Shown: positions 5,152-64,000 of the stretch, one piece after another | Layout: every line of letters starts with the position of its first letter | Position numbering within the stretch: the stretch's first letter is position 1 | Sequence record: NC_054908.1 | Length of the DNA: 64,000 nucleotides | Source: Escherichia phage vB_EcoM_DalCa | Reading direction: 5' to 3' (one strand) | Program-made: the position numbers and the translations under genes | Notes under the pieces: generated by a model | What the model was told of the DNA's origin: nothing | Databases searched by the model: none | The model's input: only the letters and a program-made list of their open reading frames with translations

Positions 5152-5571
5152 TTATTCCTTAAAGTGAGCTTTCAACATCTGATACAAGGACCATGCCTGT
5201 TCATTATTTTCAATAGTAACTTTCATGATCGGGAATTCTGTGAAATCTTCTATTTGTTCTTGCTCTTCCTGCTCTTGTTCTTCAGCTGCCTGATATGGAT
5301 TTTCCACTTCATTAAAGAACTCAGCTTCGCTCGTTGAAAGCCAAATAAAATCTTCATCCAAAATATCTTTACCGGAGGATAACGCCAATCTTCCAGTAGA
5401 TGTCACAATTTTAGTAGGACGACCAAGATGGTCAATATCTATAACTTTAAAAGGTTCCATACCTAAACGCCGCGCATAGATTCCGTTATCAGTATGGTCT
5501 TTAATAAAATTTTCTTGAGCTTGTTTATTTTTAAATTGATACCATTTATTAACTTCAAATTTAATAGCCAT
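5152..5571 (-). CDS. hypothetical acidic protein
   Basis: 139 aa ORF with [10 protein letters not shown] acidic tract. Confidence 0.5.
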
Positions 5572-5789
5572 TAATAAATTTCCTTCCAGTAAGTTGTGCC
5601 ATCTTCAGTGATTTCACGGAATACACCATAAATTGGTTGTTTATCACCGACTTTCTCATATACATAAACCGAAGTCAAGTGAGTAAACTTGATAGTGTGT
5701 TCCTTTTGAACTACTACCAAATCTGGATCGAATAATACATCTTCAAATTCATCATTAGTGCAATTCTGAACAATTTTACGTTTCATCAT
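5571..5789 (-). CDS. hypothetical protein
   Basis: 72 aa ORF, 1 nt overlap with downstream gene. Confidence 0.45.
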
Positions 5790-5960
5790 AATTTCCTCAT
5801 TAATTGAACATTGGAGCGATGCGTTTCAGAAGAGTATCAGCGCACCTTTAACGAATTATCCATTTTATTCTTCAAGTTGTTTTCTGTATCAGTAGTTGAT
5901 ATTGATATAGTACCATAATCAACTACTGATGTATATAGTTTTATGAAAAAATTTTAAACT

Positions 5961-17441: not shown

Positions 17442-17606
17442 TTACTCTTCTTTTTCTTTAGATTCCTCTTTTTTCTTTTTAGGAATCTGTTCAGGACCTT
17501 TATTTACTACAGCACCTGACGTTGTTCCAGTGGAGATATTTTCAGGATTACCACCTGAATCTCCAGCTACCATATCTTCTTTAATAAATTCTTTATATGT
17601 TTTCAT
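17442..17606 (-). CDS. small Lys/Glu-rich protein
   Basis: 54 aa ORF read by hand (MKTYKEFIKEDMVAG...), GAGG RBS. Confidence 0.35.
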   Translation of the reverse strand: MKTYKEFIKEDMVAGDSGGNPENISTGTTSGAVVNKGPEQIPKKKKEESKEKEE

Positions 17607-21863: not shown

Positions 21864-22706
21864 TTAATCAACTGCTATTGGATGAATAGCATTAAACTTA
21901 TGAAATGCTTCTGATTTTTCTTTACGCGAAACGCACATGCGAAGAACCTTTAATGGCTCGTCTTCTTCACCCAACGATTTTCGTTTTTCAATATTAGAAG
22001 TTTTCCAACGAGCTTGCTCTGGAAACTCTCTATTGATTTGCTCAAGCGCTCTATTATGTTTAGAATTACTACGAATTGAACTGCACCCTCCAGGAGCTTG
22101 TGCTTTTCCAGATACAACCAGATATTTGAACAAGGCCAAATGCGGATAACCTTGATTAATTAAATTGAGAAATGCATACATATCTTCGCACAAATCAATT
22201 TTTCCATACCCAATTTGTTCTGTCGTAAGTTTTCCAAGGTCATACCATGTATTCGTGAATCCATATGAATTTTCACGATAATTACCCCAAGATGAAGTAA
22301 TTTTAAAAATTGGTAGGCGAGCATGACCGTGATAATACCCACAATCCATGGCATCTTCGACGTATTGAATCAATTCATAGAACTGTTCACGAGTCAATTG
22401 ATTGACTTTATCCACACAACGACGATCATCTCTTTTTCGCATTGAACTCATACGAATAGTAGTATCATCGTCAATCATCCAGATTCGTTGACCTGCATAC
22501 ATATCAGTAATTGCTTTACGAGTACCGGCAATTCCATTAACATCATCAGGAATAGTTACAATTTTAGCTTTAGACCCATAGGCATCATAATAAGCTTTTT
22601 CTTCATGTTCACGTACTACGATATGAGGTTCATAATCAGTCGGAAACATATCAAGGGCAGAAACTGCCCCTACACGTTGATAGCTCGGAATTACGAATTG
22701 AATCAT
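21864..22706 (-). CDS. GT-A-fold glycosyltransferase at the beta-gt locus (possibly beta-glucosyl-HMC-alpha-glucosyltransferase type)
   Basis: 280 aa; N-terminal IPSYQR and DxD-like IDDDTT motifs; not similar to remembered T4 beta-gt (351 aa). Confidence 0.6.
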   Translation of the reverse strand: MIQFVIPSYQRVGAVSALDMFPTDYEPHIVVREHEEKAYYDAYGSKAKIVTIPDDVNGIAGTRKAITDMYAGQRIWMIDDDTTIRMSSMRKRDDRRCVDKVNQLTREQFYELIQYVEDAMDCGYYHGHARLPIFKITSSWGNYRENSYGFTNTWYDLGKLTTEQIGYGKIDLCEDMYAFLNLINQGYPHLALFKYLVVSGKAQAPGGCSSIRSNSKHNRALEQINREFPEQARWKTSNIEKRKSLGEEDEPLKVLRMCVSRKEKSEAFHKFNAIHPIAVD

Positions 22707-23344
22707 TTAAGTGCCTTACATTTATCAAAATGGTATCTTGTCATATTTGGCCCACGTCCTTTTAGTCCGCAATGCGGACATATTTTTTCTATCAAATTAT
22801 GAGGTTTTCCTTTACGATTTTTAGACATCGTTTCTTTAATTATTTTAGCTTTTTCTACGCCAAAAATTTCTTCATAAGTTTTACCAGAATTTTCCTTGGC
22901 TCGATTTATAATTCCATATGCCTGCTCATTTTTACCATACATTGGATTACCTTCGCCTTTCATTCTTTTAGAATGATCAGGACGCTTGATTCCACGAAAG
23001 GCATTTCCGCACTTATATCTTTCTTCTGGAGATAGTTTTTTACCGTACATTCCATTTAATTTGCCTGGAAAACTTCCTCCCCATGCTTCATTCTTTAAAT
23101 TATATGAATCCGGACAATTAGCAGCATCTAAACAAGTTAAAATAATTTCTTCAACCTGTCTAAACATTGGTCCTTCATATAATATTTCTTTATTAAAGGA
23201 TTTTATTCCATATTTCTTTTTAACATGTTGCCAAACTACACCCGAACCATCATAATTCGGGTTGTGACCATCATGACTTCCTATATACCACTTTTTAGTT
23301 TTAGGATGTTTATACTTATAAACATGCGGCACATTTACTTCCAT
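22703..23344 (-). CDS. GIY-YIG homing endonuclease (Seg-like)
   Basis: 213 aa; N-terminal VYKYKHPKTKKWYIGS GIY-YIG-like motif; NUMOD-like repeats GKKLSPEERYK, GNPMYGK, GKPHN; C-terminal CPHCG. Confidence 0.75.
   Translation of the reverse strand: MEVNVPHVYKYKHPKTKKWYIGSHDGHNPNYDGSGVVWQHVKKKYGIKSFNKEILYEGPMFRQVEEIILTCLDAANCPDSYNLKNEAWGGSFPGKLNGMYGKKLSPEERYKCGNAFRGIKRPDHSKRMKGEGNPMYGKNEQAYGIINRAKENSGKTYEEIFGVEKAKIIKETMSKNRKGKPHNLIEKICPHCGLKGRGPNMTRYHFDKCKALK
22703..23344 (-). mobile_element. free-standing homing endonuclease gene inserted between glycosyltransferase gene and gene 42
   Basis: HEG overlaps the upstream gene by 4 nt and gene 42 by 10 nt; no ORF lies here in T4 gene order. Confidence 0.65.
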
Positions 23345-24075
23345 TTTCCAGTATAATCCTTTTTAGCAATATGAGTCTCACCGGTGTTCCACCAATGGTC
23401 AACTAAATAAAACTGATTTTCGTACACATGAAGACTTCCAACGTTCCATATAATAGAACCTGCTTTATATTGCCGCGATGGGTCGCCTGCATTCAAATCA
23501 GATACTAATTTATCTAGTACGTATTTTTGCCAAGCATAATCATTACGATAGCCTGCCCAGCAATCATTGCTTCTCATGCTAACAACCGCATTGACTTTCT
23601 TATCACGAATCAGGTACTGTACTGTATTAGTACACATGAAATCTGACATACCATCTTTATTGTAGTCAAATTGCATGGATGGACGAGTATAAATCATGAT
23701 ACCACGTCGAGAATCAGGATTTTGACCAAGTTCAGCTAAACACATATCATACTGGGCATAGTTATCTTCTGACCAAATAGCCCAACCATAATTCGAGTTA
23801 ATTTCGCCTTTAGAAGATGCTACCTGCTGCCAAATCTTTGGTGTTTCACCTGGAATATCTTTAACAAACAAACTCTTAGATTTATACCATTCAAGTTCAC
23901 GCTGAATGTATTCATCATTAAGAGCGCCAAAAATAAACGGTTCATCTGCTACAAATGATGCGCCAATAATTTCAATAGTTTTAACACCGGTTTTATCAAC
24001 TACGAAATCTTTTTCTTTTAATGCAAGCCCCAAATGAAGACGGATTTCTTCAACTGTCATAGAGTCACTAATCAT
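23335..24075 (-). CDS. 42: dCMP hydroxymethylase gp42
   Basis: 246 aa as T4 gp42; thymidylate-synthase-like fold expected. Confidence 0.9.
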   Translation of the reverse strand: MISDSMTVEEIRLHLGLALKEKDFVVDKTGVKTIEIIGASFVADEPFIFGALNDEYIQRELEWYKSKSLFVKDIPGETPKIWQQVASSKGEINSNYGWAIWSEDNYAQYDMCLAELGQNPDSRRGIMIYTRPSMQFDYNKDGMSDFMCTNTVQYLIRDKKVNAVVSMRSNDCWAGYRNDYAWQKYVLDKLVSDLNAGDPSRQYKAGSIIWNVGSLHVYENQFYLVDHWWNTGETHIAKKDYTGKWK

Positions 24076-34934: not shown

Positions 34935-34950
34935 AAGGGCCGAAGCCCTT
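34935..34950 (-). terminator. stem-loop at 3' end of alpha-gt
   Basis: aagggccgaagccctt overlapping the stop codon. Confidence 0.55.
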
Positions 34951-36152
34951 TATTTTGTAATAATGTCAAACTGTTCTTTAAAACAGAAGCTTGAATCTTG
35001 GTGCTGATACAAAAATTCATATGCTTTTTCTCGCTCACGGTCATAAAGAGCTCGGTCAGATGACAGTTCTTTAATACGTTCAAATGTTGATTCCATATCA
35101 TTTTCATCAAACCAAATGATACCGCTATCATGCGAGGTCAAAGGAGTATTATCAACACGGAATTTTAAATTTTCGCCAGTAGATTTCCAAAATACCGGAA
35201 TTGTTCCACACGCGCCAAGCTCGAGATGAGTATATTCTAAAGAACGTTGTAGATATTTTTTATCCAACTTACTCAACTGATAACCAAAACCGGATTTACT
35301 CATACGTTCAAGCATTTCGCTATTTACATAACGGTCAAGAATTTGCGTTGGCAAATTAGGAGCAATTTTAATTTGGTCTACTTGATGAAGACGATAATAC
35401 TCGTATGGAATTCCTTTTTCTTTAATAGGAATGAACGCTGGAGAACGTTCCAGACCTTCCATAATAGTACTTAGTCCTGCAGGTTTAAGATGTTTTTCAT
35501 GAAAATCAAACATCTGATAAAAACCTTTCCATGTAGTCGTACGACCAATCCAACGGTTGATATTCATGTTAATTTCAGAAACATCTTTCCAGTAGGTTGA
35601 TCGAACCTTCGCAATATCCATCGGAGGCTGAAAGTTATATACTGTCGGTGCTTCTTCAATATCATCAAACAGAGAAACTGTTTCTGGATACCATTCTTTC
35701 ATCAGAACTTTATTAAAATCGCCATTATCAGAATGGCTAAAAATAACATCAGCTCGACGAACAGTTTCTTCTAATCCCAAATTTCGACGCAAAGAAAGAG
35801 AAGAATGGTCATGTTGATAAACTACAACACGAACCGAAGGTTTAATGTTATCAATAATTTTTTTATAGTTATTAATAGTGTCTTCTTCAACTGAAGTAAC
35901 AGGAACTGAATTGATAATTAGAATATCACAATCATTTACCAGCTTAAGTGTTTTATCGTATTCTTTTGCCAATAAAACCGGAATTGAAAATGATTTATAA
36001 TCATGTGCACAGTTACGAGTAAATGATTTATCTTTAGCATAAACCAAAGTTACTTCATGACCATTTTTAATAAACCAATCACGTTGCTCAAGAGAAAATT
36101 TAGTTACACCACAACCTTCAAGACCTCGAGCCATAAAAATACATACTTTCAT
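34950..36152 (-). CDS. agt: DNA alpha-glucosyltransferase
   Basis: 400 aa as T4 alpha-gt; N-terminus resembles remembered T4 AGT; position between 47 and 55. Confidence 0.8.
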   Translation of the reverse strand: MKVCIFMARGLEGCGVTKFSLEQRDWFIKNGHEVTLVYAKDKSFTRNCAHDYKSFSIPVLLAKEYDKTLKLVNDCDILIINSVPVTSVEEDTINNYKKIIDNIKPSVRVVVYQHDHSSLSLRRNLGLEETVRRADVIFSHSDNGDFNKVLMKEWYPETVSLFDDIEEAPTVYNFQPPMDIAKVRSTYWKDVSEINMNINRWIGRTTTWKGFYQMFDFHEKHLKPAGLSTIMEGLERSPAFIPIKEKGIPYEYYRLHQVDQIKIAPNLPTQILDRYVNSEMLERMSKSGFGYQLSKLDKKYLQRSLEYTHLELGACGTIPVFWKSTGENLKFRVDNTPLTSHDSGIIWFDENDMESTFERIKELSSDRALYDREREKAYEFLYQHQDSSFCFKEQFDIITK

Positions 36153-52117: not shown

Positions 52118-52263
52118 TGATTCTTCTCCAAATAAGTTTCGATAATTTTCTGGGCGAGATAAACCGCGTTATCTTCAGTTGCGTCTTCCAAGAAACTTTC
52201 AAAACACTCTGAAATTTCTTCTGTATCAATCAACTTTTTTACTTCAATTGGTGTAATTTTCAT
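52114..52263 (-). CDS. small hypothetical protein
   Basis: 49 aa ORF read by hand (MKITPIEVKKLIDTEE...), ATGA overlap with downstream start. Confidence 0.35.
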   Translation of the reverse strand: MKITPIEVKKLIDTEEISECFESFLEDATEDNAVYLAQKIIETYLEKNQ

Positions 52264-52299
52264 TTTGTTTTCCGTTTAAGTGTTTGTTTTGATAGTTGT

Positions 52300-52329
52300 A
52301 TAGTACCATAAAGCTTTATGCTTGTAAAC
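52300..52329 (-). promoter_or_regulatory. T4-type early promoter
   Basis: minus strand GTTTAC, 18 nt, TACTAT; directly after terminator 52359..52376. Confidence 0.55.
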
Positions 52330-52358
52330 AGTTTTGTGAAAAATTTTTGAAATAAAAA

Positions 52359-52376
52359 GGGAGCCCGAAGGCTCCC
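52359..52376 (-). terminator. stem-loop terminator downstream of nucleotidyltransferase gene
   Basis: gggagcccgaaggctccc followed by U-run and early promoter on minus strand. Confidence 0.65.
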
Positions 52377-52378
52377 TA

Positions 52379-53392
52379 TCATTTATAATAACTTCGGTGG
52401 TTTTCAAGATAGACCTTCTCAAGGAAGTCATCCCAGAAACTCATGTCTACTGTTTTAGGCATACCGTTCTTAGAAGCTTCAATAGATGCTGCTTCTACTT
52501 GATCGACCACATCTTCCAAAAACTCTTGAACCGTTTTAAATGGATGTTTACCCAACTTCACGTCGAGAATAAATGGAGCATCTTGGAGTGGATAAACCAA
52601 GTCACCAGTTTTGTAAATTTCCAATAGTTGGAGTCCACCACGGCAAGCATGACTCAGAGCTTTCCAGTCAATACCTTCATTGGCTTCGGCCTTACGAGCA
52701 CGTTCACCATATTCAGCATCTAATTTGTTCAGTGACTGCTTAAGCTCAATAAGAGAAAGCGTTGTCTGATATTTACGACCCAACACAGTGTAGAACGTTT
52801 GTGGGCCTGTTTTCTCATGATTATGGAACACCCATTCACAGAATTCGTTTTCTGGAAGACGATGCTTAATATCTTCAACTTTAGTGCGACGCTGCTTAAT
52901 AGAACCATCTTCTTGGTAATCAATCCACTGCTCAGGGATTTGATTAACTACTTTCAATACATCACGTAATGCAGCCAAACGAGAACCCTTGACACCGTAT
53001 TTAGAAGCTTGCTTGCGGACATATCCTAAATAGGATTTCATGTTAGTCGTATAAAAACGAGAACGGTTGTCTTGAATAAACTTCCACACATCAGGCAAAT
53101 CAGATTTAACCACTAGTTCAGGTGGAGTGTGAAGCATATCCAATGCTACAGTTTCACCATCTGCTGCTAATTTAAAGAAATATTTAAGACTGTATAGTTC
53201 ATGGTCAATATCATCTTTAGTGTTTTTAGATGATGTGTTGTTAGTGTTTTTACTCATGTGCTCTTTGACATTTCCGATAAGAATATCACGAGCAGGAGGA
53301 ACAAAAATTTCTTTAAAATCTACATCAGATTCTGGGGTAGAAGTTCCATAAAGATGACTACCAAAATAGCTTTTCATTACTGTTTTCATCAT
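52379..53392 (-). CDS. Pol-beta-superfamily nucleotidyltransferase of unknown function
   Basis: 337 aa; N-terminal GS-x9-DxD signature (YFGSHLYGTSTPESDVDF) and helical C-terminal domain. Confidence 0.6.
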   Translation of the reverse strand: MMKTVMKSYFGSHLYGTSTPESDVDFKEIFVPPARDILIGNVKEHMSKNTNNTSSKNTKDDIDHELYSLKYFFKLAADGETVALDMLHTPPELVVKSDLPDVWKFIQDNRSRFYTTNMKSYLGYVRKQASKYGVKGSRLAALRDVLKVVNQIPEQWIDYQEDGSIKQRRTKVEDIKHRLPENEFCEWVFHNHEKTGPQTFYTVLGRKYQTTLSLIELKQSLNKLDAEYGERARKAEANEGIDWKALSHACRGGLQLLEIYKTGDLVYPLQDAPFILDVKLGKHPFKTVQEFLEDVVDQVEAASIEASKNGMPKTVDMSFWDDFLEKVYLENHRSYYK

Positions 53393-53856
53393 TCAGCCTT
53401 ATATTCAATAACAGGACATACTTTAGCTTTACGAGCTTTTAAAAATTCAACGATAATCGATTTCTTGGGTTGAATAGGAGGTAAACCTTTATACGCCCTA
53501 TCAATATTTTCTATGTGTAAAGCATAATCCTTTTTCCATTTATAATCTTTATATTTTTCATGCAAATGTGCAGGAATAACAAATGAACCGATAATAAGTA
53601 AAACAACCAAAAGTGCAAGTATAAATGCCGATGGAAGAAGAGTCCATAAACTACCGAAAATAAGCCAACGTTGTAAGCTTTCTGCACAAATAATTGTTAG
53701 CCCTACGAGTATAGCACATCCAAAAATAGAAACGAAAAATGTAGGAATGGCAATAGACCAAAAATATGCGCATAGTGTCTTAGGTCGTTGCCATTCATCG
53801 TTAAACAATTTGAATAATTTATAGTGCCAAGAGTTTTCATTAATAACCATAATCAT
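53389..53856 (-). CDS. polytopic membrane protein
   Basis: 155 aa; about three hydrophobic helices; 4 nt overlap with nucleotidyltransferase gene. Confidence 0.5.
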   Translation of the reverse strand: MIMVINENSWHYKLFKLFNDEWQRPKTLCAYFWSIAIPTFFVSIFGCAILVGLTIICAESLQRWLIFGSLWTLLPSAFILALLVVLLIIGSFVIPAHLHEKYKDYKWKKDYALHIENIDRAYKGLPPIQPKKSIIVEFLKARKAKVCPVIEYKAE

Positions 53857-53858
53857 AA

Positions 53859-54380
53859 TTATCCTTTCATTGAAGGCGTAACGGTTGTTAAATACTTAAT
53901 CATAGCTTCAGCTTCTGATTTTGATAATGAAATTTCTCCATTGTTTTGACGAATAGAAATAAAATCCGGATGACGGTCACCACCAGCTTTTAAAACACAC
54001 ATATAAGTATCAGTTTCACCTTCAATATTTGAAATGATTGAAGCAGTTCCACATGAATGCGGTTTTTGATAAATCAATGCAGCTTTTCTTCCGCCATTTG
54101 ACTGCTCATAGGCTTTTAATACATCAAGCAAATCAGTTCTTTTATCAATAGCTAAAATGTTATTTTCATCTTCAATGTTAAATCCTTCGGATACTTCATA
54201 AAGTGTTACCCATAAATCACCAATGTCAATAACAGCATTTACTTTTCCACGGCTTTCAAGAGTATGACAAATTTTCTTGATTTCGTCATAACTCATTTTA
54301 ATAATATCATCTCCTTGACTAAGGAAGATGTCATTTTTAAATTCAACACGAATTAAACCGCTTCCACTTGAAATAAACAT
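53859..54380 (-). CDS. hypothetical protein, paralog of 54387..54932
   Basis: 173 aa; C-terminal motif SKSEAEAMIKYLTTVTPSM shared with neighbour. Confidence 0.5.
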   Translation of the reverse strand: MFISSGSGLIRVEFKNDIFLSQGDDIIKMSYDEIKKICHTLESRGKVNAVIDIGDLWVTLYEVSEGFNIEDENNILAIDKRTDLLDVLKAYEQSNGGRKAALIYQKPHSCGTASIISNIEGETDTYMCVLKAGGDRHPDFISIRQNNGEISLSKSEAEAMIKYLTTVTPSMKG

Positions 54381-54386
54381 ATTTCC

Positions 54387-54932
54387 TCACTTTGAAATCA
54401 TAGTTGGAATGACAGAATCAAGATAAGTCTTTAGCGCAATAGCTTCGTCTTTGGTAAATGTGACAATATGTGCTCGAAAATCATCAATTTGACGAATAGT
54501 TAAGACATCTCCATCTTCATAACATTTTGATACGTTTAAAACAGTTTCATCATTCTGATTGCAAGCGTTAGTAATAATAGCATTGCAATTTTTAAACCAT
54601 TTTAAACTATGTTTTCTTTCATTAGAATAATAAAAATATTTAATCTTATCTATAAAACTATCCCAATGGATAACTGATAAGCATATTGACTCGCTTTCAA
54701 TATTAAATCCTGGGCATGAAGAATAAAAATGAATTTTATGCTCATCATTAATGCTTACAATTTTATCAGTATAAGGATTTTCAATTTTGGTTAAATGAAT
54801 GATTTCACTAGGCGTAAAATACAGCATATCGTCTTCTTGTGTCAAACGATACATATTATTTACTTTTTCTATAGCCAATTCACCAAAAAGTGAACTAACT
54901 TCTAATACTAATCGTTTCGCCTCGCTCATCAT
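54387..54932 (-). CDS. hypothetical protein, paralog of 53859..54380
   Basis: 181 aa; C-terminal TKDEAIALKTYLDSVIPTM. Confidence 0.5.
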   Translation of the reverse strand: MMSEAKRLVLEVSSLFGELAIEKVNNMYRLTQEDDMLYFTPSEIIHLTKIENPYTDKIVSINDEHKIHFYSSCPGFNIESESICLSVIHWDSFIDKIKYFYYSNERKHSLKWFKNCNAIITNACNQNDETVLNVSKCYEDGDVLTIRQIDDFRAHIVTFTKDEAIALKTYLDSVIPTMISK

Positions 54933-55052
54933 TACATACTCCTCTGAATCATATCAATAATGTTGTTCACCAGATTATAAGTAAACATTGGGTAATTATA
55001 TTGAATCACCACATACACAACAAACAAAACTTTCATTCTCTTCTCCTTGGCA

Positions 55053-55082
55053 GTTGACAAGATTACTATATCATAACCTTGC
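55053..55082 (-). promoter_or_regulatory. T4-type early promoter
   Basis: minus strand GTTTAC, 18 nt, TATAGT. Confidence 0.55.
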
Positions 55083-55086
55083 CAAC

Positions 55087-55260
55087 TTGTAAACCATTAA
55101 ATGACGTTTTCGATAAAATTCTGAAGCTTTGTATGAGCATCAACCATGATTTTCATTTCTTCTTTAGCGAAAGCTGTACCTCTTTCCCGAGAAGAATACT
55201 CATAATCAGAAACTGCATTAGCATATTCTTCAATTAGCTTCATTAAAAACATCTGCTTTT
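55087..55260 (-). CDS. small hypothetical protein
   Basis: 57 aa ORF read by hand, TAATG overlap. Confidence 0.3.
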
Positions 55261-55454
55261 CAGTTTTCATTATTCCACCTAATCATTTCAAGATATTGAA
55301 CTAACTTAGCTTTAGATTTATCCAAATCCTTTTTAGCTGATTCTATACCATCGTATGAATATCCTTCACAATGCTCAACTGCTAATTGGTATGAATCTAT
55401 TTCAATATCACGTGCTAATTTAATGATTTTTTCAAACTGTTCGCGTGTTAGCAT
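55260..55454 (-). CDS. hypothetical protein
   Basis: 64 aa ORF. Confidence 0.4.
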   Translation of the reverse strand: MLTREQFEKIIKLARDIEIDSYQLAVEHCEGYSYDGIESAKKDLDKSKAKLVQYLEMIRWNNEN

Positions 55455-55456
55455 AA

Positions 55457-55696
55457 TTAAACTCTAGTATTATGATCGATAATTTCATCAAGAAACATAT
55501 CTAACGCTTCTAAAGCATTATCAACTTTAGCTTCAAGTTCATCAATGCCTTTATTTGCAATGCCTGACGAAAACCAAGCAAAGTCACTAAGTTCCTCGTC
55601 TGCTTTACGAATTAAAGCTACCAATTCTTTAATCTTATCCGCTTGTTCGATACTAATCATTATTCCACCACATATGAAAGAGAGAATATTGCACAC
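55457..55696 (-). CDS. hypothetical protein
   Basis: 79 aa ORF; start may be internal Met. Confidence 0.4.
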
Positions 55697-55848
55697 GCCA
55701 TGTGAGTTGCAACTTCATCACACATATTATAACGTTTCTTAAGAAGTTCTACAAGTTCTTCACTAGTAACTTCATCCATGTTGACGAAAAAATCACCATT
55801 AATGATGACGTAGATATTTCCTTCATGATTAAGTGCTTCAATTTTCAT
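55660..55848 (-). CDS. hypothetical protein
   Basis: ORF-track ORF to 55893; start at Met [10 protein letters not shown] with GAGGAG RBS, downstream of promoter 55877..55906. Confidence 0.4.
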
Positions 55849-55876
55849 GATGTTCTCCTCTTTATCCGATGGTTGT

Positions 55877-55906
55877 ATAGTACCACAGCTCAAACGGAAA
55901 GTAAAC
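55877..55906 (-). promoter_or_regulatory. T4-type early promoter
   Basis: minus strand GTTTAC, 18 nt, TACTAT; directly after terminator 55922..55939. Confidence 0.55.
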
Positions 55907-55939
55907 CGGTAAAATGAAAAAAGTCTCCCGAAGGAGACT
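55896..55939 (-). repeat. promoter-plus-hairpin module, copy 2
   Basis: first 26 nt identical to 14926..14951; hairpin stem differs by paired compensatory changes. Confidence 0.7.
55922..55939 (-). terminator. stem-loop terminator downstream of rI.-1-like gene
   Basis: agtctcccgaaggagact; same module as 14951..14970 with compensatory stem changes. Confidence 0.65.
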
Positions 55940-55943
55940 AATG

Positions 55944-56330
55944 TTATTCGAGGGAAAGAAGATACTTACTTTGGTAAAACATTCCAGTAATATCATCTAT
56001 CGTGCTTTGGATGGCTGGAGGCATTTCTTTATAAATGCTGTTAGATTGGTCTAGTATACGATCAATCATTTTAATTGTGTCGGTAGGAAGTTTACTGGCA
56101 TCTGGAATTGAAGGCGTGTATTTTCTACCAGAATACCCCAAATATTGCTCACCAAATTTATCAATCAAATCTGGTAACTCAGAGAAAATAAAATCGTATG
56201 CTTTGTGTCTAGCATAACTTTTAGTTTCAAAATGTGCAGAATGAAAATAAGCTTGTGCAGCCATTAATAAACCTAAGTATTCATCTGCCTTTGAAGGTTT
56301 TCCACTTTGTGAAAAGTCGCTGAATTTCAT
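55944..56330 (-). CDS. hypothetical protein (rI.-1-like)
   Basis: 128 aa ORF immediately downstream of rI. Confidence 0.5.
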
Positions 56331-56620
56331 TCAGTCTCCAATTTAATGTTCATAATTCTAGCGTATGATTGTGCCATCTCCGCGCCTCGTTCTATACATT
56401 CAAAATCAGAAGAGCACGGGTCATTTTTATAGGTCGTTCTCATAAAACTATAGAATTGTTCAGACGATTCTACGCTTTTATTTTCAAAAAGCATATAAAC
56501 GTGCCTAATACCAGATTCCATAAATTTATCAAAATGAGGATCGACATTCGCTTCAATCGATGGAGATAAAACAAATGACAATCCTAGCATGGCAAATAGT
56601 GCCGTTGCTTTTAAGGCCAT
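56327..56620 (-). CDS. rI: lysis inhibition regulator RI
   Basis: 97 aa as T4 RI; N-terminal signal-anchor MALKATALFAMLGLSFVLSPSIEA; position next to tk. Confidence 0.75.
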   Translation of the reverse strand: MALKATALFAMLGLSFVLSPSIEANVDPHFDKFMESGIRHVYMLFENKSVESSEQFYSFMRTTYKNDPCSSDFECIERGAEMAQSYARIMNIKLETE

Positions 56621-56681
56621 AAAGGCCTCCTATCATTTTTGTCCTGTATTTACTTTATGCCGATGCACGGCCTTAACTTTA

Positions 56682-56846
56682 TCAAGGTATTTTTTCAAAA
56701 TTTCGCAATCTAGTATAGTCTGCCGGAGATTGGTTGAGTGATACTTCTCGACGCAAAGCTGAAATAACATTTCCAACTTCCCTACGAATTTCATCTAATT
56801 GAAGCACAGTAAGATTGCGAAGTTGCTTTTCAGTTAATTGTAGCAT
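56682..56846 (-). CDS. small hypothetical protein
   Basis: 54 aa ORF read by hand ([12 protein letters not shown]...), AAAGGGG RBS. Confidence 0.35.
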
Positions 56847-56888
56847 ATATACCCCTTTAGTTAGATAAACCTATTTATAACTTTTGCA

Positions 56889-57470
56889 CTAACCGAGCTT
56901 TTTAGTTAATTCGTTCCAGTGTTTTCTACACAAAGAAACATAAATTTCATCACCAATACAGATTTGATTACCTTCTTTAACTGGTGTTCCATCTTCCATT
57001 AATCGAGCTGTCATAATAGCTTTTTTACCACAATGACAAACTGCCTTTAGTTCAATAAGTTTATCTGCAATCGCCAAAAGTTCTTTAGAACCTTCAAATA
57101 ATTTTCCAGCGAAATCAGTCCTTAGCCCATAAGCCATAACAGGAACATTATATGTATCAACAATTCGACTTAATTGATGCACCTGTTCAGTTTTTAAAAA
57201 CTGAGCTTCATCTACAAATACACAATGAATATCTTTTTGTGCTTCAGCCCATTTATAGAACTCAAAAATATCCATATCATCCGTAATAATATTCGCTTCC
57301 TGCTTAATTCCAATGCGAGAAACGACTTCACAGACAGAATCGCGAGTATCAATAGCAGGCTTAAGAACTAATACACCCATTCCGCGTTCTTTATAATTAT
57401 GTGCAGCAGTCAAAAGAGAAGCAGATTTTCCAGCATTCATTGCTGCGTAAGTAAAAATTAAACTCGCCAT
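56889..57470 (-). CDS. tk: thymidine kinase
   Basis: 193 aa as T4 Tk; P-loop YAAMNAGKSASLL and C-terminal zinc Cys pairs. Confidence 0.9.
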   Translation of the reverse strand: MASLIFTYAAMNAGKSASLLTAAHNYKERGMGVLVLKPAIDTRDSVCEVVSRIGIKQEANIITDDMDIFEFYKWAEAQKDIHCVFVDEAQFLKTEQVHQLSRIVDTYNVPVMAYGLRTDFAGKLFEGSKELLAIADKLIELKAVCHCGKKAIMTARLMEDGTPVKEGNQICIGDEIYVSLCRKHWNELTKKLG

Positions 57471-57479
57471 ATCACCTTC

Positions 57480-57665
57480 TTAAAGCATATTCACATAAGC
57501 TATTAATTCGTTTTCTTTCTTATCAAACCGATCAGCAAATTCTTCTTGCTGTTCGGGAGATAGCGGGCCGTATTCATCATAAAAGGTGTTTGCTTCTGTA
57601 TGCTCATCTAGAAGTTCATGGATAAGCTCAAACAATTTATCTTTTTGTTCTTTACTCAGACTCAT
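57480..57665 (-). CDS. hypothetical acidic protein
   Basis: 61 aa ORF. Confidence 0.4.
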   Translation of the reverse strand: MSLSKEQKDKLFELIHELLDEHTEANTFYDEYGPLSPEQQEEFADRFDKKENELIAYVNML

Positions 57666-57835
57666 ATATTAATTTCCAGGAGTTTTAAAATAATTCGCTT
57701 TTGCTTAAATATTTCCATAGTTAAATGACCAGTATCTTTTTGACCGATTCCAATGGCAAAACCTTTATTGACAGCGAGTTCAATTAAATTATCAATCTCA
57801 CGTAACACTTCATACTGTAACTCAAAACTATTCAT
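57662..57835 (-). CDS. small hypothetical protein
   Basis: 57 aa ORF read by hand, ATGA overlaps at both ends. Confidence 0.35.
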   Translation of the reverse strand: MNSFELQYEVLREIDNLIELAVNKGFAIGIGQKDTGHLTMEIFKQKRIILKLLEINI

Positions 57836-58044
57836 TTCGGTTTACCTTCTTTAACGAAATCTGGATAAGGATAAAATCCCGAATAAAATCCTTCACCTTT
57901 ATGATTGATGCATCCTTTATTAGAACAATAGCACCAATAATCGAAATCACAAGCCATTTCATCGTTGCATAAAGCAAAAACAACTGGCCATTTACACTTT
58001 TCACAATGGGCATTTTTAAGAATACTAGTTTGGCTCATAACCAT
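57832..58044 (-). CDS. Cys-rich small protein
   Basis: 70 aa; several Cys pairs (CEKCKW, CNDEMAC, CYCSNKGC). Confidence 0.45.
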   Translation of the reverse strand: MVMSQTSILKNAHCEKCKWPVVFALCNDEMACDFDYWCYCSNKGCINHKGEGFYSGFYPYPDFVKEGKPK

Positions 58045-58262
58045 GTAACCTTTAAGCAGTATTCTTCTACATGCTGTTTACGACCTTTCTTATCAATAAA
58101 GGTATATTCAACGAATGTTCCAATGTAGTCTTTATCTACATCATGCGGACTATTAATTGGACATTTAGTACGGCAAATGCGTTCCCATTGACGAATAATT
58201 ACTGCCTTATTCTTTGGGTCATATGGATGTGGATAATGTATATTCATAATAACGGTTCCCAA
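58035..58262 (-). CDS. hypothetical protein
   Basis: 75 aa ORF. Confidence 0.45.
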   Translation of the reverse strand: MGTVIMNIHYPHPYDPKNKAVIIRQWERICRTKCPINSPHDVDKDYIGTFVEYTFIDKKGRKQHVEEYCLKVTWL

Positions 58263-58711
58263 TCAACAATCACAATTTCTAATTTAGAGGAATATGTATC
58301 TAAAATCCCCTCAATAATATCCCAGTTCCCTTTACCTATGCCTGCACCAATCCTAGGCATATAGATTGTAGGTTTAATCAGTTTATTTTCACCAAACTCA
58401 TTTAATTCTAACATACAATTCATTAAAGCGGAATACTCAAAATTTGGCCCTGGTTGAAATTGAGTATAAAGGTTGAAGCAATACGCTTTATGAGTCCTAA
58501 AGTATTTTTCATAGACTGAGTAAGAACCGAGTTTAGTTACATCACCCCATTCAGTCTGTAATTTATCAGCTTCCAAAATTTTAGGGAAAGCTTTGGTTAA
58601 TTGACCCGCTACGCCTGAACCCATAGTATGAAAACAATTGCATCCATGCGCAATATTTTTACCTTCAGCGAAAAGGGCGACAATATCGCCCTTGATATAT
58701 TTTACAATCAT
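58244..58711 (-). CDS. macro-domain protein (ADP-ribose binding/processing)
   Basis: 155 aa; macro-like motifs NIAHGCNCFHTMGSGVAG and MPRIGAGIGKG. Confidence 0.6.
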   Translation of the reverse strand: MIVKYIKGDIVALFAEGKNIAHGCNCFHTMGSGVAGQLTKAFPKILEADKLQTEWGDVTKLGSYSVYEKYFRTHKAYCFNLYTQFQPGPNFEYSALMNCMLELNEFGENKLIKPTIYMPRIGAGIGKGNWDIIEGILDTYSSKLEIVIVDWEPLL

Positions 58712-59049
58712 CTAGTACTCAATCCTCGATTATAAGAATCTACTAAACGGTCAACCATTGAATGACAAGCGGCTTTATCTTTCTCCTCCGCAACTGAACA
58801 TTCTAAGGTATTCCACTTTTTAGCATATCGTTTTAACAATGTATCATTTTTGTATCTGCTTGATTTATCTCTTTCTCCGTCTTTATATGCATATATTAAT
58901 TTCTGCGCAAATTCAGCTTGGCATGCTTTATTTTTCCCGCAATAATCCGCTGCAGTACGGTTTACATACTCTCTAATTTCAGTATATGATGTATCTGCTA
59001 ACACAGAAAATGAAATTAATCCTATACATAAAACCAAAATTTTAGTCAT
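58708..59049 (-). CDS. secreted small protein
   Basis: 113 aa; signal peptide MTKILVLCIGLISFSVLA; four Cys. Confidence 0.5.
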   Translation of the reverse strand: MTKILVLCIGLISFSVLADTSYTEIREYVNRTAADYCGKNKACQAEFAQKLIYAYKDGERDKSSRYKNDTLLKRYAKKWNTLECSVAEEKDKAACHSMVDRLVDSYNRGLSTR

Positions 59050-59587
59050 TTACTATTTCCAAAAGTTTATTATTTTTAAGGTAATTAGCCTTTTCTAGGA
59101 CTTCAGAAGCATATTTAGAACCTGCTTTAACATTCCATCCCGAATTATAAGATGATATTGCTTTTCTTATATCACCCTTATGTATATTTAACCAATAAGA
59201 AAGTTCAATGTACGCCCAGGAAGCTGAATTGGACCGTTTATTCAACATTCTTTTTATTTCAGCATCGGTCATATTATAACCAAGTTCCTTGACTCTCGCT
59301 CGCATAGTAGGCAAATAATTTTGGAACATTCCATAGGCATGATGCTTTGGTTTAGATTTTAAATTAACTCCGGCAGAGCTTTCTTGCCACAAAATAGCAG
59401 CCATTATATGACCCAATCCGCTCTTATGGATGTTTTTGTGTGTTTTATATTTTCCATCCTTAGAAAATTGTTCCCCGAATTGATACGCGTAACGCATGTT
59501 ATCGAGTTGGACATTACTGAAAGTATGCTCGGAGCTATGTGCCATCATTGAAATGGCCAATAGACCAGCGAGTAGTGCTTTTCTCAT
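59042..59587 (-). CDS. secreted SLT-domain lytic transglycosylase-like protein
   Basis: 181 aa; signal peptide; SLT-like motifs WQESS, GMFQ, SYNSGW. Confidence 0.55.
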   Translation of the reverse strand: MRKALLAGLLAISMMAHSSEHTFSNVQLDNMRYAYQFGEQFSKDGKYKTHKNIHKSGLGHIMAAILWQESSAGVNLKSKPKHHAYGMFQNYLPTMRARVKELGYNMTDAEIKRMLNKRSNSASWAYIELSYWLNIHKGDIRKAISSYNSGWNVKAGSKYASEVLEKANYLKNNKLLEIVND

Positions 59588-59594
59588 GCTTACC

Positions 59595-60056
59595 TCATTG
59601 AGTTTTAATTACTGCTTTAGAAGCCTTTCCTGGTAAACGACGACTGTTGATAATTGCCATCCTACATTGAAGTGACGGGTCTTTGAACTTCGCGTTAGGT
59701 TTACAAACTGTAAATCCAAGCCAAAGATTTCCATCTGTGATTTCTAAACGTCCAGGACGATATTCAACCCCATCAATAAAATCCTCGTCAATGTCAGGAC
59801 GCGGAGGCATACTCAGGAATTCATTAACTTCTAAAACATGGTCTTTTATTTTATGGAATAATTCAAAAACATATGTCTCATCAATCTCCCGTTGAATTGC
59901 ACGATCAAGAAGATGTTGAGAATATTTTAGATGAAACGATGAGACTCCTGCTGCTTTTGATGCCTCACGAATCTCATTGTTAATTTGACGAAACTCCGAC
60001 TCAAAGTGACGACGAAGCTTATTTCGACGGATAAAAACTTCTGTATTGATAGTCAT
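59595..60056 (-). CDS. regB: RegB endoribonuclease
   Basis: 153 aa as T4 RegB; GAGGAG RBS; early promoter immediately upstream. Confidence 0.8.
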   Translation of the reverse strand: MTINTEVFIRRNKLRRHFESEFRQINNEIREASKAAGVSSFHLKYSQHLLDRAIQREIDETYVFELFHKIKDHVLEVNEFLSMPPRPDIDEDFIDGVEYRPGRLEITDGNLWLGFTVCKPNAKFKDPSLQCRMAIINSRRLPGKASKAVIKTQ

Positions 60057-60083
60057 GTTATTCTCCTCTTAACTGATAGAAAA

Positions 60084-60113
60084 ATTATACCACAGTCAAG
60101 AGGAAAAGTAAAC
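60084..60113 (-). promoter_or_regulatory. T4-type early promoter upstream of regB
   Basis: minus strand GTTTAC, 18 nt, TATAAT. Confidence 0.6.
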
Positions 60114-60115
60114 AG

Positions 60116-60394
60116 TTATTCTTTAAATCTAATCAATTTATTCATAGACTTTGAAACTTCTGCACGAACCTCATGTAGATTTTTGAGCTGTTCAAGACGC
60201 TGCTCATAGTAAGCAATTTCATCTTCTTCGAGACAGTCCTGTGAATCTTCTTTAAGATAACGTGCATAGTCCTGGAAAGCGTTACGAACTACTTCCTGGA
60301 AGTCATCAAGACTTTGAATTTTCTTAGGAGCAACAGATACACGACGAGGGGCAGTATAATACTCATAACCAAACCCTGCGCTTAATTGAGCCAT
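60116..60394 (-). CDS. hypothetical protein
   Basis: ORF-track ORF to 60436; internal Met start avoids overlap. Confidence 0.45.
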
Positions 60395-60660
60395 TAGTAT
60401 TTTTCCTCTAGTTGGAACACAGCACGACAAGCCCACATACTGGCTTCTTTGAGTTTCATTTTAGCAATAGTTAACTGATCGAGGCTTTCGGCGTAATTCT
60501 TCGCGAGTTCATCATCTTCACAGCTATCAAATGCTTCCCAGAATTCATCATATAAAGCATCAAAGATAAGCCCTAAACGAACTTCAGCATCTTTGATAGC
60601 ATTCACTTTACTGATTTTATCGTCAGTATGTGGTTTATAACCTTTAATGTCTTCAATCAT
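60394..60660 (-). CDS. hypothetical protein
   Basis: 88 aa ORF. Confidence 0.45.
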
Positions 60661-60874
60661 ATTTTACTTCCTCACCTGTTCCCAAATCATATTCAACTAA
60701 ACGAATAGGTTCATGAATGCCATATCCTTGAACAGAAATTTCTGTCGTAGGATAAATTCCATTAATATCACCCATGTTCCATGCTTCGTTAAATTGCTGT
60801 TCGCCTGAATTACTAAACCACTCGGCGAAAGCATTTAGCACATCTTCAGAACCTTCAATAATTATCTTTGCCAT
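60653..60874 (-). CDS. hypothetical protein
   Basis: 73 aa ORF. Confidence 0.45.
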   Translation of the reverse strand: MAKIIIEGSEDVLNAFAEWFSNSGEQQFNEAWNMGDINGIYPTTEISVQGYGIHEPIRLVEYDLGTGEEVKYD

Positions 60875-61236
60875 TACAAACTCTCGGTGAAGGTACGAGC
60901 GATAACGTCGCGCTGCTGTTCCGGAGTCAGAGAGTTAAAGCGAACTGCATAACCGGATACACGGATGGTCAGCTGCGGATATTTTTCCGGATGCTTAACT
61001 GCATCTTCCAGAGTTTCACGACGCAGAACGTTAACGTTCAGGTGTTGACCACCTTCAATTTTAACTGTAGGCTGTTGCTCAATTTCAATTTCACGGGCAT
61101 GCAAACCATAGAAAATTTCTGGGTCTACAAAAGAGTCCTCTTTAAAGGTTTTAGAGACAATAATTCGTGCTTGAATACCATCTTCAAAATAAATAGTACC
61201 TTTATGTGTGCCTTCAAGAATTTGATATGCTTTCAT
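60874..61236 (-). CDS. autonomous glycyl radical cofactor (GrcA/YfiD-like; T4 Y06I-type)
   Basis: 120 aa; C-terminal glycyl radical motif [29 protein letters not shown]; 3' half visibly GC-richer than surroundings. Confidence 0.8.
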
Positions 61237-61242
61237 ATAACC

Positions 61243-61569
61243 TCAATTAGAAAATAAATTTATCCAAGATTGTTCTTTAATTAAAAATGGCTCAGAATCA
61301 TATGCCATTAAACTCTGTGTGATTAGTCCTTTAAAAGGCCCATCAATAAATTCCATGGTAAAATATGGAATTTTATTCATTAGCCGTGCATTAGGAGCCG
61401 TGCACAAAACTCTGCATCCTTTGAATACGCCTTTTTGTAATTTGTATTGCTTGGGATAAAATTCGCTCAAAATGTTATTTTTTGCCAAAATTTCAAAATG
61501 ATTCACCAATTTATTTTTAATAGTTTTTGGCGAAAAATAAAGATATTCGAAAAGCTGAGTGTCTGTCAT
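61243..61569 (-). CDS. hypothetical protein
   Basis: ORF-track ORF to 61623; probable internal Met start. Confidence 0.45.
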   Translation of the reverse strand: MTDTQLFEYLYFSPKTIKNKLVNHFEILAKNNILSEFYPKQYKLQKGVFKGCRVLCTAPNARLMNKIPYFTMEFIDGPFKGLITQSLMAYDSEPFLIKEQSWINLFSN

Positions 61570-62108
61570 CATTGCATTCCGATTACGAAAAACTGTGGAC
61601 GAGTAATACCACCAATGCAACATTTAATATTACAGCAGCAGTGTACAGTGTCAATATGGACACTATAAATCTTATCCATATCAGGAGATTTGACAGGCTC
61701 ATCAATTATATACAAAATTCGCGAAAGCGATAAACCTCTGAACTTGCTTCCTTTATTACCAATAAAACTGCGCACAGAATCAGTAAATAAACGAAAACGT
61801 ATATCATCATTAGAATAACGCGAAAATTCCTTTTTAATATTATCTGCGGAAATTTTAGCGTAAGCTGAAGTATTAGAAAGAACAATAACTGTTCCACCGT
61901 CATACAACCAATTAGCGGCAAAATTAGTTACTGCAGTTGATTTACCAGATTGACGCCCACCATCTAGTCGAAGTGTACAATACTGTTTAAGTAAGTCTTC
62001 AAATGGCGGGATATATTCGTTTTTACAAATTTCTTCTACTCTAGCATCAGAATGGTGTGTAAAAGCATTCATCAGGGATAGATAAGGACCAGTTAAAAAT
62101 GTTCTCAT
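61569..62108 (-). CDS. P-loop protein of unknown function
   Basis: ORF-track ORF to 62156; start at Met MRTFLTG; Walker A-like GGRQSGKST. Confidence 0.5.
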   Translation of the reverse strand: MRTFLTGPYLSLMNAFTHHSDARVEEICKNEYIPPFEDLLKQYCTLRLDGGRQSGKSTAVTNFAANWLYDGGTVIVLSNTSAYAKISADNIKKEFSRYSNDDIRFRLFTDSVRSFIGNKGSKFRGLSLSRILYIIDEPVKSPDMDKIYSVHIDTVHCCCNIKCCIGGITRPQFFVIGMQ

Positions 62109-62253
62109 TTTGTTCTCTCTAGGTTTGGGCCATTCCATGGCGCATGAATTGTCCATTTCTGTATTTACCCATTACCGCACTTGGGCTCGACCTTATTACA
62201 GGTTGGCGGGAATCCCTCACAGAATCATGAGGTCCAGGTTATTCCCATGTTAT

Positions 62254-62670
62254 TTAAATGTAAATATTTTTGCCGTAATACTTATACCAGTGTGGCTTCA
62301 TTAAAATTTTTTCATCGAGTCGTTGTTGACTCAACTTAATAGCTGATTTGCATGGATTATAATCATTTTTCCATTCTACTGGAATATCGCTGATGTCAGG
62401 AACTTCAGTATCTTTTATACTGAACCCGCGTTTTAAGCATTCCGTTATAATGTCCGATTGACGCTTTCGCAAAAATTCTAACTTATCGTAAAAGAAAGTA
62501 ACATGACCAGAACCTAAAATAAATTTAGAAGATATTTTAAAATCTTTAACGCGCTTACCGTTTGCCACATGCTTACGAACTATACCAAAAACACGCGGCA
62601 ATTCACGGTATTCTGCGATTAAATGTTGATCAGCAAGTTCAGATACTAAAGTCAAATTAATACGAGTCAT
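62254..62670 (-). CDS. denV: endonuclease V (pyrimidine dimer DNA glycosylase)
   Basis: 138 aa; near-identical to remembered T4 DenV ([17 protein letters not shown]...WYKYYGK). Confidence 0.92.
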
Positions 62671-62694
62671 TTTATCCCTCCAAGTAACTGTGAA

Positions 62695-62725
62695 TATACT
62701 ATCACAATTCTAGGAGAAAGTAAAC
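62695..62725 (-). promoter_or_regulatory. T4-type early promoter upstream of denV
   Basis: minus strand GTTTAC then TAGTATATT. Confidence 0.5.
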
Positions 62726-62729
62726 AACT

Positions 62730-63260
<531 letters not shown>

Positions 63261-63716
63261 TTAAAAGAGGCTGTTCATTATTCGGTAAAGTGAAGGACCC
63301 ATCACATATTGCCACTGAGTACGAGGAATAAGAGCAAAAGCATCCATCTCTGGAATCATAACGCCATCTTTATTTTCAAAATAAGACTCGCAATGGCAAT
63401 TTCTAAACATCTCATGCTCTACTGGAATCGTATAATAAAATAACTGTAAGTCTTTATTACTAGAATATTTAAATACACCTAAGTCTTCTAGAAGGTCTGG
63501 ATTATAATCGATAAAACCAGTCTCTTCTGAGCATTCTCTTTTTGCAGCTTCCAGTGCATTCAAATCAGAACTTTCTACGCGGCCCTTTGGAATATCCCAG
63601 CGATGTGCCATCATTCCAGGCTTACGAGAACCAGTAACCCGACCCATAAATAAATCTTTATCTTCTGTCATAAAGATAATACCAGCTGATAGTGTTTTCA
63701 TTTTAATTTCCTGCAT
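63261..63716 (-). CDS. nudE: Nudix hydrolase NudE
   Basis: 151 aa as T4 NudE; Nudix box GRVESSDLNALEAAKRECSEETG. Confidence 0.8.
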   Translation of the reverse strand: MQEIKMKTLSAGIIFMTEDKDLFMGRVTGSRKPGMMAHRWDIPKGRVESSDLNALEAAKRECSEETGFIDYNPDLLEDLGVFKYSSNKDLQLFYYTIPVEHEMFRNCHCESYFENKDGVMIPEMDAFALIPRTQWQYVMGPSLYRIMNSLF

Positions 63717-64000
63717 TCAGTGATAAAGTTATTTAAATTTTGAGTATATTTCTTTTCATCAAAAATCTTTTGTTGTCTGCGTAAACGCCATGGCATTTCA
63801 ATGAACATACGCCATATTCCTGATAATACTGCTGCTGTAAAAATATTAACAAGTATAGTTAAAAGAACCCAATCTCCTATTCTGTCCATTGGATTTTTTA
63901 TAAAAAAGTAAAATACGAACGATGATATAGGAAGACTAATGATATACCACAGAAGAACCTTCTTATCTGTGAACCAATCAGCATTCGTTAACTTAGCGCG
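63698..64000 (-). CDS. membrane protein, possibly 5'-truncated at window edge
   Basis: ORF-track ORF 63698..63889 (63 aa); frame stays open upstream to position 64000. Confidence 0.4.
   Translation of the reverse strand, partial: RAKLTNADWFTDKKVLLWYIISLPISSFVFYFFIKNPMDRIGDWVLLTILVNIFTAAVLSGIWRMFIEMPWRLRRQQKIFDEKKYTQNLNNFITECRKLK

Follow-up and report, generated by a model that had tools for sequence, protein, structure and literature searches.

An empty internal-protein slot and an apparently chimeric promoter-hairpin cassette between e and denV in Escherichia phage vB_EcoM_DalCa

In bacteriophage T4, the genes of two internal proteins, ipII and ipIII, lie between denV and the lysozyme gene e. 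The first-pass annotation described internal proteins as injected anti-restriction factors encoded at a variable locus, a description borne out by published work: two variable loci exist, and Ip1, Ip2 and Ip3 inhibit a different GmrSD type IV enzyme each (of the CT596, ECOR21 and ECOR17 types, respectively), without cross-protection (PMC12373910, PMC9391042). What, then, occupies this place in a T4-like phage in which denV and e stand side by side, how did such a junction arise, and which internal proteins might the virion still carry? We address these questions in a 64,000-nucleotide stretch of Escherichia phage vB_EcoM_DalCa (NC_054908.1), hereafter the window, which is a segment of a T4-like (Tequatrovirus) genome and has rIIA as its first gene.

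The e/denV junction and its counterpart in T4

The genes framing the locus are all encoded on the minus strand and are readily identified. Upstream of e lies nudE (63261..63716), encoding a Nudix hydrolase (Pfam PF00293) with 93% identity to T4 NudE. The e gene itself (62730..63224) encodes a T4-type lysozyme of 164 aa that is 97% identical to its T4 homologue, matches Pfam Phage_lysozyme PF00959 at 51.7 bits (cutoff 22.3) and keeps the catalytic residues E11, D20 and T26. It is followed by denV (62254..62670), whose 138-aa product, the pyrimidine-dimer DNA glycosylase endonuclease V, falls within Pfam Pyr_excise PF03013 (E 1.4e-13; 51.5 bits, gathering cutoff 23) and retains both Thr2 and the catalytic Glu23. 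The stop codon of e and the ATG of denV are separated by exactly 59 bp (62671-62729), a gap too small for any ORF; these coordinates confirm the first-pass reading that denV directly abuts e at this distance, with no internal-protein gene between them.

DenV is a mosaic allele, with 77.5% identity to T4 DenV, as against 97% and 93% for the neighbouring e and NudE products; 25 of its 31 differences from the T4 protein fall within residues 72-138. A single contig, that of a 97.5% relative, encodes the exact 151-aa NudE, no recorded protein is identical to vs.4 of the window, and a 47-mer specific to the window had no exact match in IMG/VR. On the far side of denV, the gap to vs.8 measures only 97-145 bp. 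The GC-richer intergenic stretch within it (62157-62253) was considered as a candidate structured RNA and rejected, as it folds no better than shuffled sequences (z 0.41), and an Rfam search of window positions 61000-64000 gave no match at E<=1.

The first-pass annotation placed both ipII and ipIII at this site in T4, and correctly so: the order denV-ipII-ipIII-e is found in both NC_000866 and X04567, with denV at 64939-65355, ipII at 65416-65718, ipIII at 65834-66415 and e at 66503-66997 of NC_000866. Over this region (T4 64939-66997) the flanking genes, their order and their strand are shared with the window. Alignment by blastn matched window positions 59316-62674 to T4 62000-65359 at 93.3% and positions 62681-64000 to T4 66454-67774 at 95.4%. 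The intervening 1094 bp of T4 (65360-66453), which hold both ip genes, have no counterpart in the window, placing the breakpoints at 62674/62681 in the window and 65359/66454 in T4.

A promoter-hairpin cassette upstream of denV

On the minus strand, the sequence between e and the ATG of denV is AGTTGTTTACTTTCTCCTAGAATTGTGATAGTATATTCACAGTTACTTGGAGGGATAAA. A pattern search and the homologous cassette in record OL960581 identify GTTTAC at 62720..62725 (minus strand) as the −35 element of a T4-type early promoter, and an extended −10 element, TG-A-TAGTAT, is located at 62696..62704 on the same strand (TG at 62704-62703, TAGTAT at 62701-62696), so that the layout of the promoter is GTTTAC-N15-TGATAGTAT. 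The pattern GTTTAC-N15-TGNTANNNT has 16 matches in the window against 0.11 expected from shuffles, every one of them (16/16) on the minus, early-transcribed strand. Written in full as GTTTAC-TTTCTCCTAGAATT-GTGA-TAGTAT, the spacer site has the sequence of a T4-type early promoter (σ70, Alt/Mod-tuned), the consensus used being GTTTAC(N14)gtggTAttaT, quoted in OL960581 from Miller 2003. That record, of phage SA20RB, labels the homologous cassette behind e a T4 early promoter, with an overlapping terminator-like hairpin. A generic σ70 scan (TTGACA/TATAAT) did not flag the spacer promoter because the site scores 8/12 against those hexamers. Both the T4-specific pattern and the annotated homologue thus uphold the earlier proposal that the gap contains an early promoter, which, judged by its sequence, would be active early after infection.

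The promoter is overlapped by an imperfect hairpin (62675..62719, minus strand), predicted by RNA folding, whose loop holds the −10 element and whose 3' arm includes the Shine-Dalgarno sequence of denV. The predicted fold has an energy of −18.9 kcal/mol and a z-score of −4.0, and none of 200 shuffled sequences folds as well. The Shine-Dalgarno sequence, GGAGGG, can be read directly at 62676..62681 (minus strand), 5 nt upstream of the ATG, and these same 6 nt are unaligned to T4 on either side, making them the crossover zone of the comparison above. The same architecture recurs in seven other cassettes from T4, T6 and ZCEC14 (z −1.5 to −6.4), with stems that differ in sequence. In T4 and its relatives, a cassette of this design stands before every gene of the interval: first GTTTAC, then a hairpin whose loop contains the −10 element. 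In the cassettes of denV and regB, the Shine-Dalgarno sequence is located in the 3' arm. As in the window, e is directly followed in T4 by the same early promoter cassette, hairpin and −10 element overlap, and denV has its Shine-Dalgarno sequence in a hairpin 3' arm. T4 differs in that ipIII and ipII each stand behind a cassette of their own, within the additional 1094 bp, and in that its denV-proximal cassette has another stem sequence.

This is the design of the promoter-early stem-loop (PeSL), at which recombination has been proposed to shuffle genes in T4-type phages (Arbiol 2010, PMC2839356; Comeau 2014, PMC4122927). PeSLs recur within a genome and flank variable ORFs of hyperplastic regions, where a role in insertion, deletion and replacement has been proposed; five IP differences were reported between phages PST and T4 (PMC2839356; PMC4122927). 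Set against the PST/T4 PeSL consensus TTTACW-N17-TAYWAT (PMC4122927), the spacer reads TTTACT-N17-TAGTAT and agrees at 11 of the 12 specified positions. It shares with PeSLs the overlap of an early promoter by a stem-loop and a location at a gene border that differs among close relatives, since it lies exactly at the breakpoint of ipIII-ipII presence and absence. It departs from them by a single base of the −10 hexamer (G for Y at position 3), and recombination at this site is proposed from comparative structure. We regard the spacer as a probable promoter-hairpin cassette of the PeSL kind.

With such a cassette, denV would have an immediate-early promoter to itself. Read-through transcripts from e could fold the hairpin and thereby mask the denV ribosome-binding site, while transcripts starting ~7 nt after the −10 element would lack the 5' arm and leave that site free. 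A more doubtful possibility is that the chimeric cassette has re-wired denV as a promoter-gated switch, in which an ipIII promoter is fused to the denV ribosome-binding hairpin; if so, read-through from e would yield no DenV, and translation would be confined to transcripts with a start inside the hairpin. Both the promoter activity and the masking of the Shine-Dalgarno sequence are predictions.

Prevalence of the junction and internal proteins elsewhere

The junction is widespread. Of 538 phage records matching a 241-bp query centred on it, 238 cover at least 80% of the query as a single piece, and tblastn detected IPIII in 261 records and IPII in 198. All 10 contigs that encode this exact DenV, human-gut metagenome assemblies among them, have the 59-bp spacer, and in 12 relatives the spacer is identical in 10 and carries one substitution in the other 2. 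Over window positions 61500-64000, phages vB_EcoM_G2540-3 (MK327944.1), G9062, JK08, HP3 and CM8 are 99.6-100% identical to the window and UPWr_E4 is 98.5% identical, and each has the same 59-bp spacer and DenV protein. Among the phage records searched, window positions 1-25000 reach at most ~97% identity to any one, and the last 11.7 kb (52254-64000) reach 97-98.3% in the best relatives. The last 2.5 kb of the window are 100% identical to MK327944.1, a pattern typical of Tequatrovirus mosaicism.

Gene content at this interval varies extensively. The order is e-ipIII-ipII-denV in T4, e-ip4-vs.8 without denV in T2 and AugustSocin, e-regB in T6, e-denV-ip4 in ESh18, e-ipX-denV-ip-ipIII in G3F10, e-ipIII-orf-denV-ip in JS98 and e-ipII-denV-ipIII in TG1. 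Across the Tevenvirinae, ip genes and denV are shuffled at this e-to-vs.8 hotspot, and the window has the minimal form of the interval that keeps denV. As in the window, ipII and ipIII are both naturally absent from T2 and T6 (see also PMC12373910). These phages differ from the window in that Ip4 follows e in T2, which lacks denV, and T6 has regB directly after e; the window keeps denV and vs.3-vs.8. Since the empty junction is already present in about 240 sequenced phages, it is ordinary, and the empty e/denV slot is a common and already known polymorphism, at a hotspot that is itself known. That ip genes vary among T-even phages has been documented since 1994. The first-pass observation is real and its interpretation sound, and on its own it adds little to what is on record: the anti-GmrSD roles of Ip1-3 were shown between 2007 and 2025, and the exact junction is found in hundreds of deposited genomes.

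Public records often misannotate the ip genes and their neighbours. The Ip4 gene of T2 (AP018813.1, 62429-62902) is labelled "valyl tRNA synthetase modifier", ipII and DenV of ZCEC14 are labelled "ssDNA binding protein" and "TraG-like protein", and lysozyme e of G2540-3 appears as "baseplate hub subunit and tail lysozyme".

The first-pass annotation had proposed a search of the remaining genome for ORFs with a capsid-targeting (CTS) N-terminus. Carried out within the 64-kb window, a scan of the ORFs for the CTS motif (MKT[YF]xEF...E) returned gene 61.1 alone, which falls outside the internal proteins, and no ip gene. Likewise, a tblastn search of the window with eight Ip families gave no match at E<0.1, and nothing apart from the N-terminus of gene 61.1. 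The gene 61.1 homologue (17442..17606, minus strand) encodes 54 aa and begins with MKTYKEFIKE, the T4 version beginning with MKTFKEFIKE. This ORF was considered as a compensating Ip and rejected, because gene 61.1 is carried by T4 itself and is conserved in 1227 records.

Gene 61.1 has features of its own. The 1227 T4-like records that contain it include Aeromonas and Acinetobacter phages, and of the four residues (positions 4, 7, 8 and 10) on which capsid targeting and processing by gp21 reportedly depend, none is missing from its N-terminus. Residues 2-38 align with residues 57-93 of the T4 major capsid protein gp23 (43% identical, pairwise E 1e-8), a stretch of gp23 that presumably spans its maturation cleavage site. 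The gene 61.1 product could be a packaged or protease-processed peptide, a possibility for which we found no literature.

The ipI locus would lie about 6 kb past the end of the window. This hyperplastic locus, between 57B and trna.4, is a second site at which ip genes are swapped (Repoila 1994, as cited in PMC12373910). It resembles the e/denV site in being flanked by promoter-hairpin cassettes, and members of phrog_3499 occur at both; it differs in lying outside the window. Between 57B and trna.4, every one of the 12 same-junction relatives has one CTS gene or two, encoding a 77-aa phrog_8111 protein, an 85-aa phrog_3499 protein or IPI itself. In three of the relatives, a 187-aa CTS protein (MKTYAEFLTEAAKLPSE..., phrog_2280, "unknown function") is encoded between the tRNA cluster and e.8. 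Its gene, at ~5357-5940 of their stretches, marks a third CTS-gene site, and PHROGs gives phrog_2280 no internal-protein label. Because CTS genes are present at the ipI locus of all 12 relatives, the injected repertoire of the phage is, by relatedness, likely to be different rather than absent. This agrees with the first-pass prediction of a different injected-protein repertoire, in that the same-junction relatives, on whose relatedness to the phage the agreement rests, have other CTS proteins instead of IPII and IPIII.

Origin of the junction and its consequences

Alignments of the spacer to its counterparts in other phages revealed two kinds of match. The first ~50 nt match the e/ipIII cassette of T4 and the e/ip cassette of AugustSocin (alignments A1 and A2), and the last ~15 nt (TTGGAGGGATAAAATG), containing the denV ribosome-binding region, correspond to the denV side, the 3' end matching the denV-proximal cassette of ZCEC14. 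On these alignments, the 59-bp spacer (62671..62729, minus strand) is best read as a single chimeric promoter-hairpin cassette in an empty ip slot: the −35 and −10 elements, like the inner stem, appear to derive from the e-proximal cassette, and the outer 3' arm (GGAGGG) and the ATG context from the denV-proximal one. The crossover can be located to a zone of ~10 nt. In ZCEC14, the cassette of the window lies between ipII and denV, directly upstream of denV, and the same cassette precedes ipIII in T4, ip4 in AugustSocin and denV in both ZCEC14 and the window.

Taken as a whole, these results are best explained by a model in which the phage is a Tequatrovirus whose e/denV ip slot was emptied by recombination between cassettes, and we consider this model probable. 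In ip-bearing relatives, the cassette copies before each gene of the interval are short direct repeats. A genome with the cassette at both places would carry ~50-bp direct repeats around its ip genes, and homologous or microhomology recombination between the two cassettes would then remove the ipIII-ipII block and leave exactly the hybrid found in the window. The loss would have taken place in the ancestor of a now widespread lineage. No genome with two fully identical flanking cassettes was found. If the model is correct, the locus is a clear-cut case, found in nature, of genes lost between repeated promoter-hairpin cassettes.

The cassette model permits gain as readily as loss, and the empty e/denV junction might instead be ancestral, T4-like phages having gained ipIII-ipII through insertion of promoter-bounded cassettes; the window would then display an unoccupied insertion site and no deletion scar. 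The uniformity of the sequence in 12 relatives and its frequency (238 records) are in keeping with this alternative, as is the variation of gene order in nearly every lineage examined, from which it follows that insertions clearly occur. However, ipIII and/or ipII adjoin e or denV in Dhakavirus JS98, Tegunavirus TG1, Moon and Klebsiella phages, and their occurrence next to these genes in distant genera argues that ip genes in the interval are old. Loss is for this reason favoured over non-acquisition, a direction that depends on the presence of ip genes at the interval in other genera, where horizontal gain is possible. Moreover, the spacer looks like a hybrid of two cassette types and not like a single pristine cassette. 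We therefore regard both an ancestral junction and its corollary, a site without a deletion scar, as unlikely.

The ip genes might also have moved instead of being lost, to a site downstream of denV, to the tRNA cluster or to the ipI locus, so that an IPII/IPIII-like repertoire would be kept. Such positions are indeed used in other phages: Ip4 is encoded downstream of denV in ESh18 and ipIII downstream of denV in G3F10 and TG1, three relatives encode the 187-aa CTS protein close to their tRNA region, and either hotspot can hold members of phrog_3499. Against relocation, the eight-family tblastn of the 64-kb window yielded nothing but the gene 61.1 N-terminus, and the gap between denV and vs.8 measures no more than 97-145 bp. 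Across records, IPIII was found by tblastn at 263 places in 261 records and IPII at 198 places in 198 records, and the 12 same-junction relatives, over ~10 kb on each side, contain other Ip families only, without IPII or IPIII; relocation is on this evidence quite improbable. Hardly credible at all is an assembly artefact, in which short reads from two similar cassettes were collapsed and the ip genes dropped. The flanking cassettes are similar repeats, so that a collapse is conceivable in principle, but they measure only ~50 bp, less than a sequencing read, and the identical junction is present in 238 independently sequenced phage records as well as in metagenome contigs.

Other cassettes and duplications in related phages also attest to the mobility of this region. 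ZCEC14 (OP168898.1) contains, at positions 4100-4252 of its stretch, a duplicate of 46-50 codons of the denV 5' end, of a T4-like allele, which sits between an ip gene and ipIII and looks like a recombination relic in the ip array, a trace of exchanges anchored in the interval. The early promoter-hairpin cassette upstream of regB (GTTTACTTTTCCTCTTGACTGTGGTATAAT; window 60084-60113, minus strand) is the cassette that lies directly after e in T6. The T6 deletion seems to use repeats of the same kind, since the regB cassette follows e and the whole vs.3-denV block is gone. Beyond recombination between cassettes, a more speculative extension, which we hold to be possible but doubtful, is that the promoter-hairpin repeats of the e-vs.8 interval might be an integron-like exchange system and the chimeric cassette a promoter-gated denV switch. 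The ip genes and denV might then be swapped as units, at measurable frequency in mixed infections.

What would the loss of ipII and ipIII mean for the phage? IP-null T4 is viable, and loss of IPIII leads to a smaller burst size (review PMC9026906). T4 without ipIII does not grow on ECOR17 (PMC9391042), and T2 and T6 are without Ip2 and are rescued by a supply of Ip3 (PMC12373910). The window encodes a dCMP hydroxymethylase (gene 42, 23335-24075), an alpha-glucosyltransferase (alpha-GT; 34950-36152, PF11440) and, at the position of T4 beta-gt, a 280-aa glycosyltransferase with a weak TAGT match (21864-22706). Because alpha-GT and a second glycosyltransferase are encoded, the phage DNA is expected to contain glucosylated hmC, and GmrSD attacks such DNA, gentiobiosyl-hmC included (bioRxiv 10.64898/2025.12.06.692756). 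From the published work we infer that the virion cannot deliver Ip2 or Ip3, a conclusion that depends on the rest of the genome, beyond the window. With both missing, GmrSD enzymes of the ECOR21 and ECOR17 types should restrict the phage, unless Ips encoded at the ipI locus cover them. The predicted GmrSD sensitivity is relevant to the choice of T4-like phages for therapy cocktails.

The window resembles T2 and T6 in encoding alpha-GT together with a 280-aa second transferase in place of T4 beta-gt. It thus combines a T2/T6-like sugar set with denV, a gene that T2 and T6 lack at the e-vs.8 interval.
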